64,000 bases of DNA from Escherichia phage REP2: the sequence record OQ174501.1. One strand, given 5' to 3'. The position numbers and the translations under genes are program-made. Numbering within the stretch: the stretch's first letter is position 1; each line of letters begins with the position of its first letter. This document shows positions 4,563-64,000 of this stretch, in pieces. The notes under the pieces were generated by a model. That model was not told the DNA's origin. It searched no databases and worked only from the letters and a program-made list of their open reading frames with translations.

Positions 4563-7703
<3,141 letters not shown>

Positions 7704-7744
7704 GATTTCTCCTAATCTGGGCTTTAATTAGTTTATAATATTTA

Positions 7745-9446
<1,702 letters not shown>

Positions 9447-32074: not shown

Positions 32075-32548
32075 ATGAAATCATATGCTCAATTTTTAAA
32101 TGAAGCGGTGTTAAATGAAGCATCTAGCACTGAAATTCAAGCTGTTGCAAAAGCTGCCATTGCCGCGGGTAAATATTCCTATAAAGATGCTTCCGATGAA
32201 TCACGATTCCAATTTGCTCGTGATATGAAAGCCGAAGGATTTACAGGGAATGCAGTTAGTATGGCTTGGAAAAGTTTAGTTGCTACTGGAGCTGCTTTTG
32301 CAAAGGCTTCGGGTAAACCTGCTCCTAAAGCAGATCCTAAAGCTGCACAAGAAAAAAATATTGTTAAAGGAATTATCTCCAAATATGAAGCTATCCTTAA
32401 AGAGCTTTTAGTAATCAAAACTGAAGGCCAAAAGCTAGCTCGTGCTTATAGTTTCAAAGATAACCCACATGCTCACTCTCTTGAGTATGTTGAAGACATC
32501 CAAAAAATTATTAAAGACCGCATTTGGTCTGCTAAACAAATCAAATAA
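32075..32548 (+). CDS. internal-protein-like protein with CTS-like N-terminus
   Basis: 157 aa starting MKSYAQFLNEA; Ala/Lys-rich; late promoter upstream and terminator downstream. Confidence 0.55.
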   Translation: MKSYAQFLNEAVLNEASSTEIQAVAKAAIAAGKYSYKDASDESRFQFARDMKAEGFTGNAVSMAWKSLVATGAAFAKASGKPAPKADPKAAQEKNIVKGIISKYEAILKELLVIKTEGQKLARAYSFKDNPHAHSLEYVEDIQKIIKDRIWSAKQIK

Positions 32549-33341: not shown

Positions 33342-33935
33342 ATGAACACACTGAAGAAAATTGTTGAGTTTATTCGCACTAAACTTGGTTCTGCTATGGC
33401 TAAAAATCTATCTGTTGAAGAGCAGTATACCGCTGCGGCAGCAAAACTACTTGATAAGATTAAAGATCTAAAAACTGCTTCTGTTAAATCTATTAATGAA
33501 GAAAAGCGTATTCGTGAACTTATTGTCGAAAAGAATAAGCAGGCCGAATCAAAAGAGCGTGAAATTCGCAAGCTTCTTTCGGAAGGTCAAGATGTAACAA
33601 TGCATGCTAAACTTGGTTTACTATATCGTCGAACAGCTGAGCAGTTGACTACTAAAGCTGATGGTTATGCTGAAATGCGAATTGAAATCGCCAAGAAAGT
33701 AGTTGAGTTAGATGATGCTCGTCAAGAACTTGCGGTTAAATTGGAATATATCCGTGAAACTCGTGCAGCAAATGCCCTTGGAATTAGTACTGCCGATGAT
33801 GTAGTTGAAATTGCAGCACTGACTAAGGTTGATATTGAAGATACCCTTGCTCGAGTTGAAACCTTTAACGGCAATATTTCTGGGGTTGAAACTACCTCTG
33901 CCGATGTTCAGGAATACATTAATTCTCTGAAATAA
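33342..33935 (+). CDS. coiled-coil protein (possibly PspA/IM30-like)
   Basis: 197 aa, highly helical, charged heptad pattern; PspA similarity is by eye only. Confidence 0.5.
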
Positions 33936-33941
33936 TGATAA

Positions 33942-33960
33942 GGGGCTTCGGCCCCTATTA
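33942..33960 (+). terminator. stem-loop / weak terminator
   Basis: GGGGC-ttcg-GCCCC followed by TATTACTT. Confidence 0.4.
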
Positions 33961-33976
33961 CTTGGAGTAAGTAGGA

Positions 33977-34582
33977 ATGAAAATGCAAAGTGATTTCAAT
34001 TCAATGTTTGAAGAGTTCCAAAGACAGGTTGATGTTCCAGACCAATTATTAAATGCTCTTAAACGTATGGCAGAAGGACGTAATTACTATTGGGGTTCTT
34101 CATATGAAACTGATGAAAGTCTTTCTGGATTTTATAAAGGTAAAAAGTCTTTAATACGTCCTGGAATACTTATTAACAGTATTGAATCAATTCATTCATT
34201 AACATGTGATTTTGATGTTGAATTTACTGATTTCATTTCTCCTGAATGGACAGTATGTTATTTAAACGACGATTATGATTATCTTGGCGTTTATAGTTTA
34301 AGTGATGCATGGTTTAAACGTAATTTACAAAAGTCAAATTTATTTTATATTGATACTACGGTAAAATTTCAGGGAAAGAAATATTTCTTTACTCTTATAG
34401 TTGATTCTGAAACAAAGCATGAAAATAAACGTATTCTTAGTAAAAAGAATATCTTAACTATTGTTGATGATCTTTTTGATAAATTCGTAGAAAATCCTAA
34501 TTTTGAAAGCGATTTATTATTAGAAAAATTTGTTAAGGAATGTAGAGAATATGTCAAAGCCATCACTATACCTTCCAAGTAA
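33977..34582 (+). CDS. hypothetical protein
   Basis: 201-aa ORF; C-terminus FVKECREYVK resembles the motif of the next three ORFs. Confidence 0.55.
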   Translation: MKMQSDFNSMFEEFQRQVDVPDQLLNALKRMAEGRNYYWGSSYETDESLSGFYKGKKSLIRPGILINSIESIHSLTCDFDVEFTDFISPEWTVCYLNDDYDYLGVYSLSDAWFKRNLQKSNLFYIDTTVKFQGKKYFFTLIVDSETKHENKRILSKKNILTIVDDLFDKFVENPNFESDLLLEKFVKECREYVKAITIPSK

Positions 34583-34943
34583 ACCGTTGAAGTATGAATT
34601 AAAGCGTCAGATAATTTCTACTGATGTGTTAATAGGTCCTGTGGTAGCCGTATCATTTGTGATTCTGCTGATTGCTGGAATAGTTATAGACGTTATGACT
34701 GATATTGAATCTGGTGCAATATTTGGAGCAACACTAATTCTTCCATTGGTAGTTCCGCTTTTATTAGTACCTATAAATTGGATAGGATATTGGTATCAAG
34801 GAAGACACTATCGTAAACGTGTACGTGAATGGAAAGCTCAGTGTAAAAAGATTAAAAAGGAACACCAGCTTAAACTTGCTGCGCATGAATTTAATGAAAT
34901 TATGAAATTTGTTAAGGAATCACGATGCAAAAGCCAAAACTAA
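34551..34943 (+). CDS. small membrane protein, paralogue family member
   Basis: 130 aa, 2 predicted TM helices, C-terminal FVKESRCK. Confidence 0.55.
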   Translation: MSKPSLYLPSKPLKYELKRQIISTDVLIGPVVAVSFVILLIAGIVIDVMTDIESGAIFGATLILPLVVPLLLVPINWIGYWYQGRHYRKRVREWKAQCKKIKKEHQLKLAAHEFNEIMKFVKESRCKSQN

Positions 34944-35287
34944 ATAAAGTCAAATATTCTCTTCCTGAGTCATTTTTAATTTTTGCTGTAGCGTTGGCTA
35001 CAGCTCTTGCGGGTAGTCTTTTTGGATTGTTAATTGACTGTCTTATTTTAAACATTGACGGCACAGTAAATATAATAGAAGTTTGGAGTGAACTTCGTTA
35101 TACTATAGCGATTTCATTATTTTCATTCTTTGGTACCATGTTATATTTTCATTATGATAATTTTAAAATAAATTGGCAAAGAAAAAAGGATTACAAAATA
35201 CAATTAAATGAATATAATAACTACATGTCTTATATTGAAAAAGAATCAATGGAAGAGTTTGTGAGTGATTGTAGGAAAATTAAATGA
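34925..35287 (+). CDS. small membrane protein, paralogue family member
   Basis: 120 aa, 2 TM helices, C-terminal FVSDCRKIK. Confidence 0.55.
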   Translation: MQKPKLNKVKYSLPESFLIFAVALATALAGSLFGLLIDCLILNIDGTVNIIEVWSELRYTIAISLFSFFGTMLYFHYDNFKINWQRKKDYKIQLNEYNNYMSYIEKESMEEFVSDCRKIK

Positions 35288-35772
35288 TTTTAAAAACTCG
35301 CTGGTATGATTTAGATGATGGGGACGATGGCATTTCAGTTGATAGAGTTGACTGGAGTGGCTGTTCCGAAGATATGAAAAAATTGTTAATTAGGGAGTTT
35401 AGAATGGGATATCAAGCAGCTAAGCCATCTACTGTAACAGATGATAAATTCGTGTGTATTCAAAATGGTCGTGCTAAGTTAACGAACGCTGATTGGTTCA
35501 CAGATAAGAAGGTTATTCTGTGGTATATTATTAGTTTTCCTGTGACATCATTTGTATTTTGCTTCTTTGGAGAAAGTCCAGTAGGCAGAACGGAAGATTG
35601 GATTCTTTTAATTATACTTGTTAATATTTTTACAGCAGCAGTACTATCAGGAATATGGTGCGTGTTCATTGAAATGCCATGGCGGTTACGTAGGCAGCAA
35701 AAGATTTTTGATGAAAAGAAATATACTCAAAATTTAAATAATTTTATCACTGAATGCAGGAAATTAAAATGA
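35284..35772 (+). CDS. small membrane protein, paralogue family member
   Basis: 162 aa, 2 TM helices, C-terminal FITECRKLK. Confidence 0.55.
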   Translation: MILKTRWYDLDDGDDGISVDRVDWSGCSEDMKKLLIREFRMGYQAAKPSTVTDDKFVCIQNGRAKLTNADWFTDKKVILWYIISFPVTSFVFCFFGESPVGRTEDWILLIILVNIFTAAVLSGIWCVFIEMPWRLRRQQKIFDEKKYTQNLNNFITECRKLK

Positions 35773-36208
35773 AAACATTATCAGCTGGTATTATCTTTAT
35801 GACAGAAGATAAAGATTTATTTATGGGACGAGTTACTGGTTCTCGTAAGCCTGGAATGATGGCACATCGCTGGATATTCCAAAGGGGCGTGTAGAAAATT
35901 CTGATTTAAGCGCATTAGATGCAGCACGAAGAGAATGCTCAGAAGAGACTGGTTTTAACAATTATAATCCAGACCTTCTAGAAGACCTAGGTGTATTTAA
36001 ATATTCTAGTAATAAAGACTTACAGTTATTTTATTATACGATTCCAGTAGAGCATGAGATGTTCAGAAATTGCCGTTGTGAGTCTTATTTTGAAAATAAA
36101 GATGGCGTTATGATTCCAGAGATGGATGCTTTTGCTCTTATTCCTCGTACTCAGTGGCAATATGTGATGGGTCCTTCACTTTACCGAATAATGAACAGCC
36201 TCTTTTAA
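35769..36208 (+). pseudogene. nudE: Nudix hydrolase nudE (e.1), frame disrupted
   Basis: ATG frame reads MKTLSAGIIFMTEDKDLFMGRVTGSRKPGMMAHRW then stops at about 35892; the -1 frame continues DIPKGRVENSDLSALDAARRECSEETGF... (Nudix box) to a stop at about 36206; a single missing G in CTGG-GAT would join them. Confidence 0.6.
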
Positions 36209-36739
<531 letters not shown>

Positions 36740-37224: not shown

Positions 37225-37698
37225 ATGAAAACATATCAAGAATTTATCACTGAAGCAGCTATTAATTCTCAAATTATTGCTGAATCTTTTACCGATCTTT
37301 TGAAATTTAAAAAAGGTCAAAAAATCACTGCTGTATTGGATGATGGTACAGAAGTTGAGATGGATGTACAGGGATATAATTATGCAGTAGATGGAAAACT
37401 GTATAATAAATCTCATGCTAAATTTGATTCATTTGACGACTTTGTTAATACAGTTGAAGATGAAAAAACTCGTAGATCCATTGCAACTGGCGACGCTAAG
37501 GTTCTTATGGCACATGGCCATGAACGCATCCGCGCTAAACAGAATAAAATGGGCGAAGATAATTTTGCATTAGTTGGTTATCAATCTGGTAAACAAACTT
37601 ATGGCTATCAACGTACTGCTACCATGTATAATAAAAATGGTAAAATCGCTTTCGTGAATAGTAAAGGTTCTATTCAGTACGTTAAATCGTTCAAATAA
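37225..37698 (+). CDS. internal protein with CTS (ipII/ipIII-like position)
   Basis: 157 aa starting MKTYQEFITE; basic, Lys/Gly-rich body. Confidence 0.65.
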   Translation: MKTYQEFITEAAINSQIIAESFTDLLKFKKGQKITAVLDDGTEVEMDVQGYNYAVDGKLYNKSHAKFDSFDDFVNTVEDEKTRRSIATGDAKVLMAHGHERIRAKQNKMGEDNFALVGYQSGKQTYGYQRTATMYNKNGKIAFVNSKGSIQYVKSFK

Positions 37699-62913: not shown

Positions 62914-63328
62914 AATTAATGCAGGATTTACTGAATCTTTGAATGGTCATCTTTGTGTGAAAATTTCTGAAAAAGAATACCATGATAGTTCAATTAAAGA
63001 AGTTAATCCTCCTATTGTAAGAGCAGACCCTAATATGAAAGTGTGGGTTGATTCTTATCAAGTCAAAAAATGGTGGCAGTTATGAAAGATGAACACCCAG
63101 ACTTCTGAAATAGATTATAATAAAATTCGTTCCTCTAAAGAGGAAATGATGAGACTCTTTAAAGCGTCTCATGATAAAGCTAAAGCAGAAGGAACTATAA
63201 AATATAAGCGCATAAAATTTAAAAGTTCTAATGAGCCTCTGTATGGCGTATTATGTGGATAGGAGCTTCGGCTCCTATATTGCTTTATAAATTTTTGGTA
63301 AAATAAACCAAAACAAAGAGGATATTAA

Positions 63329-64000
63329 ATGAAAGTATGTATTTTTATGGCTCGAGGTCTTGAAGGTTGTGGTGTAACTAAATTTTCTCTTGAGCAACGT
63401 GATTGGTTTATTAAGAATGGTCATGAAGTAACTTTGGTTTATGCTAAAGATAAATCATTTACTCGTAATTGCGCGCATGATTATAAATCATTTTCAATTC
63501 CGGTTTTATTGGCAAAAGAATATGATAAAACACTTAAGCTGGTAAATGATTGTGATATTCTAATTATCAATTCAGTTCCTGCTACTTCGGTTGAAGAAGA
63601 CACTATTAATAACTATAAAAAAATTATTGATAACATTAAACCTTCTGTTCGTGTTGTAGTTTATCAACATGACCATTCTTCTCTTTCTTTGCGCCGAAAT
63701 TTGGGATTAGAAGAAACTGTTCGTCGAGCTGATGTTATTTTTAGCCATTCTGATAATGGTGATTTTAATAAAGTTCTGATGAAAGAATGGTATCCAGAAA
63801 CAGTTTCTCTGTTTGATGATATTGAAGAAGCACCGACCGTATATAACTTTCAGCCTCCGATGGATATTGCGAAGGTTCGATCAACCTACTGGAAAGATGT
63901 TTCTGAAATTAACATGAATATCAACCGTTGGATTGGTCGTACGACTACATGGAAAGGTTTTTATCAGATGTTTGATTTCCATGAAAAACATCTTAAACCT
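63329..64000 (+). CDS. agt: DNA alpha-glucosyltransferase, N-terminal part (runs off window)
   Basis: MKVCIFMARGLEGCGVTKFSLEQRDWFIKNGHEVTLVYAKDK..., matches remembered T4 alpha-gt N-terminus. Confidence 0.9.
   Translation, partial: MKVCIFMARGLEGCGVTKFSLEQRDWFIKNGHEVTLVYAKDKSFTRNCAHDYKSFSIPVLLAKEYDKTLKLVNDCDILIINSVPATSVEEDTINNYKKIIDNIKPSVRVVVYQHDHSSLSLRRNLGLEETVRRADVIFSHSDNGDFNKVLMKEWYPETVSLFDDIEEAPTVYNFQPPMDIAKVRSTYWKDVSEINMNINRWIGRTTTWKGFYQMFDFHEKHLKP

Follow-up and report, generated by a model that had tools for sequence, protein, structure and literature searches.

The e.6 to e.2 locus of phage REP2

The stretch of DNA considered here (the window) is a 64,000 nt portion of the genome of Escherichia phage REP2 (OQ174501.1). 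Our subject is a run of overlapping genes within it whose products end in a shared peptide, together with the gene that precedes them. Comparison with the annotated T4 genome identifies the five open reading frames (ORFs) concerned as e.6, e.5, e.4, e.3 and e.2, direct orthologues of T4 genes whose order and location 5′ of nudE and e are unchanged (Table 1). Continuing 3′ of e.2 are nudE, then the lysozyme gene e (36245–36739) and then denV. The 3.5 kb around the locus matches Escherichia phage REP3 (OQ174502.1), a Tequatrovirus, at 100% identity and many T4-like phages at 96–97%; for the encoded proteins, tblastn identity to T4 is 84% (e.3), 86% (e.4) and 87% (e.2), and e.6 is up to 100% identical. 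The proteins of this set match PHROG groups 2203, 2330, 2604, 2607 and 1203, with full-length E-values of 1e-60 to 1e-108 for e.2–e.5, and the position of these four genes between e.6 and nudE/e is conserved.

An initial inspection of the window (the original prediction) had described three small membrane-protein genes and a preceding 201-amino-acid (aa) ORF with similar C-termini, located upstream of nudE and e. Its ORFs, overlaps and C-terminal sequences, including the tail of the 201 aa ORF, proved exact, and the comparison with T4 that it proposed reveals these ORFs to be the orthologues of T4 e.2–e.5. Database names for the T4 e.x genes are merely ‘hypothetical’ or ‘predicted membrane protein’. 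In an older nomenclature (L13089.1, series msp1–msp8), e.6 is msp3 and e.5, e.4, e.3 and e.2 are msp4–msp7; the same record annotates an early promoter 5′ of e.6 and a stem-loop 3′ of e.6. Adjacent genes overlap by 32 nt (e.5/e.4), 19 nt (e.4/e.3) and 4 nt (e.3/e.2), and the e.2/nudE overlap is 19 nt, reduced to 4 nt if translation of nudE starts at its second ATG.

Table 1. Features of the e.6–e.2 locus in the window, and a marine protein family that carries a similar string.
Feature	Position (nt)	Strand	Remarks
Module of e.6 and four tail-tagged genes	33342–35772	+	Conserved order (Tequatrovirus through to Aeromonas and RB43-like phages)
e.6, 197 aa	33342–33935	+	By profile and model comparison PspA/IM30(Vipp1)/ESCRT-III-like; directly upstream of e.5; proposed tail partner
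Hairpin GGGGC-UUCG-GCCCC	33941–33956	+	Between e.6 stop codon and e.5 ribosome-binding site; stem_loop in L13089.1
e.5, 201 aa, soluble, tail carrier	33977–34582	+	PHROG 2607
e.5 tail motif FVKECR, aa 185–190	34529–34546	+	
e.4, 130 aa, predicted two-helix membrane protein	34551–34943	+	PHROG 2604; predicted transmembrane helix (TM) 1 about aa 26–46 (nt 34626–34688); TM2 about aa 58–80 (nt 34722–34790)
e.4 tail motif variant FVKESR(CK), aa 120–125	34908–34925	+	Inner AAGGA is the Shine–Dalgarno sequence of e.3
e.3, 120 aa, predicted membrane protein	34925–35287	+	PHROG 2330; TM1 about aa 17–42 (nt 34973–35050); marginal TM2 about aa 59–77 (nt 35099–35155)
e.3 tail motif FVSDCR, aa 112–117	35258–35275	+	Inner AGGA is the Shine–Dalgarno sequence of e.2
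e.2, 162 aa, predicted 77 aa cytoplasmic N-domain and two membrane helices	35284–35772	+	PHROG 2203; helices about aa 78–98 (nt 35515–35577) and about aa 107–130 (nt 35602–35673)
e.2 tail motif FITECR, aa 154–159	35743–35760	+	Inner AGGA is the Shine–Dalgarno sequence of nudE
Marine family of about 114 aa	L066 2129–2506; L077 4206–4556; also L073, L074, L078		

A C-terminal peptide shared by e.5, e.4, e.3 and e.2

The four proteins encoded after e.6 terminate in ..LLLEKFVKECREYVKAITIPSK (e.5), ..IMKFVKESRCKSQN (e.4), ..MEEFVSDCRKIK (e.3) and ..LNNFITECRKLK (e.2). The original prediction summarized these endings as a CRK[IL]K motif. The shared tail is real, but that string is a local variant of a core Phi-[EDN]-x-F-[IV]-x-x-C-R, with a final K[IL]K that carriers elsewhere do not conserve. 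We therefore define the tail family by this core, situated no more than about 30 residues from the C-terminus and conserved at the amino acid level. Its strict form is present in e.5, e.3 and e.2, and e.4 carries a variant (FVKESRCK) with Ser at the Cys position.

The similarity is far above chance. Six-frame translation of the window yields 211 ORFs of 40 aa or more, and F[IV]..C[RK], the strict pattern, has three occurrences among them, in e.5, e.3 and e.2, each time no more than 11 residues from the C-terminus. No further strict match was found in six-frame ORFs of at least 40 aa from the remaining 106 kb of the REP3 genome, so that the whole 168 kb was covered. When residues were shuffled within each protein, 0.026 strict tail matches were expected (three observed), and 0.004 were expected for the looser pattern F[IV].[DE][CS]R (four observed); none of 20,000 shuffles matched the observed strict or loose counts. 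The sole loose tail-like match elsewhere in the genome is in the gene 59 helicase loader (REP3 63089–63742, ..NVFIETVKSCKY), probably by chance.

A logo of 60 non-redundant carriers shows L, I, V or F at position −3 in 55 of the 60, E, N or D at −2, F at position 0, I (49) or V (11) at +1, C at +4, and R (55) or K (5) at +5. The hydrophobic positions −3, 0, +1 and +4 share one face of a helix, and a basic R/K end follows. In an AlphaFold2 (AF2) model of e.5 the region is helical (residues 180–194, low confidence). Because e.4-type members elsewhere have S, I, V or M at the Cys position, Cys is favoured in the tail and not obligatory. No other part of the carriers is as conserved as the motif: in a 10-phage alignment of the e.5 family with 15–47% identity, the only invariant residues are M1, N97, F185, C189 and R190. 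Likewise, divergent e.2 homologues retain the tail even where their neighbours are different.

Carriers of the tail in other phages

To survey the tail more widely, we took loci from twelve Straboviridae genera, anchored on the well-conserved e.6 gene. The genes that follow e.6 in these loci carry the same tail on very different bodies; the original prediction had noted neither this spread nor the tie to e.6. Soluble e.5-like carriers of 150–290 aa end in ..RFIKECREYAK, ..EFIKYCRERVQK, ..DFINLCRDELK or ..LFVDYCRRTASKK, and in KFIHSCKK in RB43-type phages. Two-helix membrane carriers of 84–200 aa end in ..NFIKECRGK, ..SFIDDCRRARK or ..EFITECRGK, and small soluble carriers of 80–135 aa in ..SFIKECRKIVS, ..SFIQMCRG or ..MFIAKCRAK.

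The kinship of the carriers was assessed by profile–profile comparison using non-overlapping core families. For e.3, homologue searches returned only close relatives (at least 73% identity), and divergent members were recovered by tblastn and synteny. The e.4 and e.3 profiles align over 45 columns (P 5e-7) that make up the whole part after the second membrane helix, e.3 and e.2 align over 19 columns confined to the tail (P 4e-6), and e.5 aligns with the others over only 10–14 tail columns (P 1e-4 to 1.5e-2). Once the tails are cut away, e.4–e.3 alone retains a weak signal (P 7e-4), which is no better than the best reversed-sequence control (P 4e-4), and the membrane hairpins do not match one another in the profile–profile comparison. 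An iterated hidden Markov model (HMM) search merges e.2, e.3 and e.4 as a superfamily of membrane hairpin plus tail; e.5 is never drawn in. The locally duplicated family that had been suggested is thus supported in part: it probably holds for e.3 and e.4 and is plausible for e.2, and e.5 shares only the tail.

Searches of e.2–e.5 against Pfam, NCBIfam, PADLOC and PDB sequences gave no informative match. PF26876 is listed for e.5 homologues in the source database. PADLOC models likewise detected no anti-phage defence or counter-defence protein among e.6 to e.2.

Tail genes lie downstream of e.6

We scanned IMG/VR for relatives of e.6, and obtained 42 loci (22 non-redundant, with 6 kb on each side) chosen solely for e.6. 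Near C-termini on the e.6 strand, the 22 non-redundant loci contain 57 strict tail motifs, every one of them downstream of e.6 and within about 6 kb; by successive kilobase from e.6 the counts are 21, 15, 6, 7, 1, 6 and 1. No strict tail motif was found in the 6 kb upstream of e.6 or in opposite-strand ORFs of these loci. The linkage is therefore exclusive in this sample, and the same downstream, same-strand position holds in the window.

The first gene 3′ of e.6 carries the motif in 21 of the 22 loci. In the exception, a PG7-type locus, the e.5 homologue is broken into two fragments. Loci have from one to five tail genes, and some (SW69-9, RB43-type) have just the e.5-type gene. From Tequatrovirus as far as Aeromonas and RB43-like phages, the order is e.6, then an e.5-like gene, then the membrane members. 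Searches of IMG/VR did not recover two distant representatives of e.6.

A scan of IMG/VR for the string Phi-E-x-FIKECR itself gave 16 loci. Five are tails in T4-like contigs, five belong to one family from marine viral contigs, and the rest are out of frame or isolated, such as a 30-codon ORF ending ..ERFIKECR. Because of these marine, out-of-frame and isolated matches, the nine-residue string alone is not diagnostic outside Straboviridae. The marine family comprises proteins of about 114 aa with ..ALE[GN]FIKECRG (..AQALE[GN]FIKECRGLD..) about 40 residues before a basic C-terminus. It may be distantly related to the tail family, or the match may be coincidental.

e.6 resembles PspA and Vipp1

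Searched alone against Pfam, e.6 of the window gives no significant match. An exhaustive search recovered 36 representative relatives, nearly all full-length ones being about 195–210 aa, and 4 of 28 family members match Pfam PspA_IM30 (PF04012; best E 8.9e-10). When a profile of the e.6 family was compared with PDB sequences, Vipp1/PspA proteins occupied the top eight places (E 8e-5 to 2e-3), with residues 1–140 aligned in register. A single-sequence AF2 model of e.6 has a mean predicted local distance difference test (pLDDT) score of 74, and about 90 in the hairpin, with helices at 2–80, 86–145 and 151–196, in agreement with the superfamily fold of an N-terminal helix and a long alpha1–alpha2/3 hairpin. 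Foldseek comparison of this model with the PDB returned Vipp1/PspA structures for all of the top 10 matches (full-length alignments, E from 2.8e-4), and CdvB, CHMP1B and E. coli PspA at lower ranks. An hhalign comparison of a single E. coli PspA sequence with the e.6 profile aligned only 27 N-terminal columns at a probability of 0.8% and was uninformative. The family-profile and model comparisons identify e.6 as a phage-encoded PspA/IM30(Vipp1)/ESCRT-III-like protein. This resemblance has been noted once, in the genome announcement of phage Metamorpho, in which an e.6 homologue is reported to match E. coli PspA at 99.9% by HHpred (PMC7862958). Beyond that report, our literature searches found nothing on e.6, and nothing on the e.x genes or the shared C-terminal motif.

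The C-terminus of e.6 (residues 185–197, window 33894–33932) is itself among the most conserved stretches of the protein, with T185, Y192, S195 and L196 invariant in 11 genera. By eye only, it resembles an ESCRT-III MIM1-type terminal helix.

Selection acts on the tail peptide

As the gene ends overlap the Shine–Dalgarno sequence and start codon of the next gene, the motif might be a by-product of the nucleotide constraint that these impose, or it might reflect 3′-end copies spread by recombination. At two junctions, e.3/e.2 and e.2/nudE, the AGGA that stands 7 nt ahead of the following ATG does come from the CRK codons TGT AGG AAA; the AAGGA of e.3 comes from the VKE codons GTT AAG GAA, and e.5 and e.4 have 16 identical nucleotides at the motif. 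Against such a constraint, synonymous codons are free at all conserved residues. In 37 motif-bearing ORFs of 12 phages, F is encoded by TTT (25) or TTC (10), C by TGT (16) or TGC (13), and Arg by codons of both families (AGA 11, AGG 6, CGA 6, CGT 7, CGG 2). Furthermore, the variable x positions destroy the Shine–Dalgarno sequence in many members, and soluble members may carry the motif as many as 25 codons 5′ of the stop codon. The e.5-type motif of phage JS10 (TTT ATT AAA GAA TGC CGT, then GAA TAC) contains no Shine–Dalgarno sequence and has no such role, the next gene having its own GAGG further downstream. Because synonymous codons vary, the JS10 motif lacks Shine–Dalgarno potential and the motif can be as far as 25 codons from the stop codon, we conclude that selection acts on the peptide and not on overlapping ribosome-binding sites. 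A by-product of translational coupling or ribosome binding is rejected on the codon evidence, though the tails do overlap the next Shine–Dalgarno sequence, and we regard nucleotide constraint or recombination as a very improbable origin of the motif.

Predicted membrane topology of the carriers

Two transmembrane helices had been assigned to each of e.4, e.3 and e.2. Hydropathy supports this firmly for e.4 (Kyte–Doolittle 19-residue means of 2.86 and 2.43) and e.2 (2.12 and 2.43). In e.3 one segment is strong (2.34) and the other marginal (1.31; Hessa sum +3.3), so that two helices are merely plausible there. No membrane segment was evident in the hydropathy analysis of e.5 and e.6. Lys and Arg residues number 4–5 at the N-terminus (13 in the 77-residue N-terminal domain of e.2), 0–1 in the loop and 9–15 in the C-terminal tail. 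By the positive-inside rule, this distribution predicts that both ends of e.4, e.3 and e.2, including the motif, are on the cytoplasmic side (N-in/C-in), as the original prediction had also supposed for the tails.

A possible role of the tail as a docking tag for e.6

Proteins of the PspA/IM30 (ESCRT-III-type) class bind the cytoplasmic membrane and stabilize or remodel it. They are peripheral membrane proteins and are commonly encoded beside small integral membrane proteins that recruit them, LiaI for LiaH and PspB/PspC for PspA (PMC9239133). Together, e.6 and e.5–e.2 form one conserved early-gene module. As our favoured explanation, though one short of probable, we propose that the tail is a portable docking tag that binds e.6. 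The tail is suggested as the e.6-engaging element because of its invariant position after e.6 across deep divergence, its standing as the best-conserved part of proteins that otherwise evolve fast, the predicted geometry of a cytoplasmic amphipathic helix and its exclusivity to this transcription unit.

Under this proposal, the shared peptide would form a short amphipathic helix on the cytoplasmic side that docks each carrier onto e.6. The e.4, e.3 and e.2 proteins might then recruit e.6 to the inner membrane as its anchors or as sensors, e.5-type soluble proteins might be regulators or cargo of e.6, and the gene overlaps, through translational coupling, would keep the set co-expressed. We infer that the module may protect or remodel the host inner membrane during infection. 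By reference to PspA-family proteins, its physiological role could be to keep the inner membrane sealed and energized until lysis, or to counter host defences that target the membrane. A hint of tail–e.6 contact, albeit anecdotal, comes from two Aeromonas-phage loci (L054 and L055; e.6 at 6001–6585, tail genes at about 6650–7930). Both e.5-like paralogues there have C-[IV] instead of C-R, and only in this lineage does e.6 show D124N and R127L, in columns elsewhere conserved to 95% or more, as well as R12T and K162D at highly conserved columns.

Other partners for the tail can be envisaged. The tails might bind each other, such that the C-terminal helices of e.5, e.4, e.3 and e.2 associate in a hetero-oligomeric complex at the membrane, one subunit of which is soluble, and e.6 is a mere neighbour. 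The presence of several tail genes per locus (usually two to five), their translational coupling by overlaps and the heptad-like hydrophobic face of the helix are all in keeping with such a bundle, and the nearly invariant Cys could bridge helices via a metal or a disulfide. Some phages, however, have a single tail gene next to e.6, which would require homo-oligomers, and e.4-type tails lack Cys; a metal site that needs Cys is for this reason disfavoured. Bundling also leaves unexplained why, even where e.6 identity falls to 32%, the gene directly after e.6 still has the tail, and we consider bundling rather unlikely. Also unlikely is recognition of the tail, as a short linear motif, by a host factor common to all carriers (for instance a membrane-quality-control protease, a chaperone, or a protein of division or of the envelope), through which diverse phage effectors would reach a single hub. 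The occurrence of one tail on unrelated soluble and membrane bodies is typical of hub-binding motifs, the basic ends (..CRK, ..CRRARK) loosely resemble C-terminal recognition tags, and in the marine family of about 114 aa proteins this string occurs with no e.6 detected nearby. Against this, the motif does not vary between phages whose hosts range from Escherichia to Aeromonas, its strict genomic coupling to e.6 is left unexplained, and its distance of 0–25 residues from the C-terminus rejects a degron that depends on a free C-terminus. Both alternatives fit ‘one tag, many bodies’; neither explains the coupling to e.6 as naturally as docking does.

Several observations nevertheless weigh against docking of the tail onto e.6. 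Its linkage to e.6 could be no more than the result of local duplication of genes within a single transcription unit. Tail genes are absent next to a distant e.6-like gene (25% identity), and no e.6 was detected in the 5–13 kb around members of the marine family. The marine case is mild evidence for a partner different from e.6, unless the string arose there by chance or convergence. The covariation described above occurs in a single lineage and is one of 12 lineage-specific changes. The e.4-type members without Cys indicate that this residue is not strictly required, no similarity of e.2–e.4 to PspB, PspC or LiaI was detected, and the AF2 model of e.5 from a 26-sequence alignment (pLDDT 47.8) is unusable, being too poor for a fold search.

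Comparison with known membrane systems

The Psp system of enterobacteria likewise places a PspA-family gene in an operon-like arrangement beside small cytoplasmic-membrane proteins whose cytoplasmic parts contact PspA (PMC9239133). Unlike that system, the module described here is phage-encoded, has no PspF-type regulator, and has partners that share a C-terminal motif, which is also present on soluble proteins. In addition, e.2–e.4 are predicted to have two membrane helices and have no sequence similarity to PspB/PspC, and searches with PspB, PspC and LiaI domain models gave no Pfam match at E up to 1 and no relevant NCBIfam match. Because e.2–e.4 match none of these models, the resemblance is functional analogy only. 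For LiaI–LiaH of Bacillus subtilis no sequence relationship was detected either, and the phage module differs in having several interchangeable carriers. The LiaI–LiaH contact is not known to use a short terminal motif.

The docking of ESCRT-III subunits through MIM–MIT contacts is the same concept, with a short amphipathic terminal helix as the recruiter. In eukaryotic ESCRT-III, however, the motif is on the ESCRT-III subunit and binds an MIT domain, whereas in the phage module it is on the partners and the receptor is only proposed. The original prediction named superinfection exclusion, lysis timing and host takeover as candidate roles for the carriers. The T4 proteins of superinfection exclusion and lysis control, namely Imm, Sp, RI, RIII and holin T, are also small early or late phage membrane proteins. 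Their REP3 counterparts lack the motif; in the genome-wide scan it was absent from REP3 imm, sp, lysis-inhibition and rII proteins. Pfam and PHROG searches gave no link from e.2–e.5 to superinfection-exclusion or lysis-control proteins.

Other features of the region

The stem-loop between e.6 and e.5 is a perfect tetraloop hairpin. Because no T-run follows it on this strand, it is not a canonical terminator; it may set the ratio of e.6 to e.5–e.2 expression, or protect the 3′ end of the e.6 mRNA.

In reference T4, e.2 is split into a 102 aa ORF and an unannotated 51 aa ORF (NC_000866, 3973–4461, minus strand), the latter holding the second membrane helix and the FITECRKLK tail, and X57093.1 has the same split. 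Since e.2 is an intact 162 aa gene in the window and in most Tequatrovirus phages, laboratory T4 may be an e.2 mutant. Conversely, it is nudE that is frameshifted in the window (35754–36211). A single −1 frameshift lies near 35870, after ..MMAHRW, where TGG GAT reads TGGAT, and the remainder is intact in another frame up to 36211; the REP3 record annotates only a 126 nt ‘nudix hydrolase’. This could be a true pseudogene or an assembly error in the G run.

Three ORFs (window 28922, 32075–32548 and 37225–37698) start with the internal-protein capsid-targeting sequence MK[ST]Y.[EQ]F.. (e.g. MKTYQEFITEA) and are variable internal head proteins flanking the e region. A second family defined by a C-terminal motif is located 3′ of the tail-motif genes in other phages. 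It consists of tandem runs of two to six small soluble ORFs (65–100 aa), all ending G-x-W-[VIFY]-S-S-S-x-x-C-stop, in Mosig-, Dhaka-, Kanagawa-, Moon- and Gaprivervirus loci (L003 3357–4151; L004 3351–4595; L007 5210–6803; L010 5578–6346; L015 5364–6378) and in Karamvirus PG7 (L011 4802–5328). The window contains none.

Implications

The genes described here were already known as T4 ORFs without function, and e.6 had once been noted as PspA-like (PMC7862958). As far as the searchable literature goes, the new elements are the tail motif, its presence on about 60 distinct proteins that represent three architectures, and its exclusive coupling to a phage PspA homologue. Five consecutive ‘hypothetical’ genes form one module around a PspA/ESCRT-III-like protein, whose partners bear a nine-residue tag under strong selection at the peptide level. 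To our knowledge, T4 is the best-studied lytic phage, and roughly half of its genes, including e.2–e.8, have no known role. For a block of genes known only as hypothetical, the analysis thus supplies a specific hypothesis, open to genetic tests in a tractable system.

That T4-type phages carry a Psp-like membrane-maintenance machine of their own, in which an ESCRT-III-type polymer of e.6 would be steered by fast-evolving, interchangeable adaptors (membrane hairpins as well as soluble domains) via one portable C-terminal tag (Phi-E-x-F-I-x-x-C-R), is a doubtful extension of the docking proposal. If the tag does dock e.6, it would be a rare short linear motif that organizes a prokaryotic or viral ESCRT-III-type system, and no docking motif would have been defined before it for any PspA-family protein of bacteria or viruses; it would also give a function to the ‘e.x’ block of T4, unexplained ever since the genome sequence became available. 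If instead the tag binds something else, it would still offer a handle on the common target of about 60 accessory proteins across Straboviridae. Should docking be correct, phages would manage host membrane integrity with their own Psp-like system, for example by keeping the inner membrane energized until programmed lysis or by resisting abortive-infection systems that depolarize the membrane.

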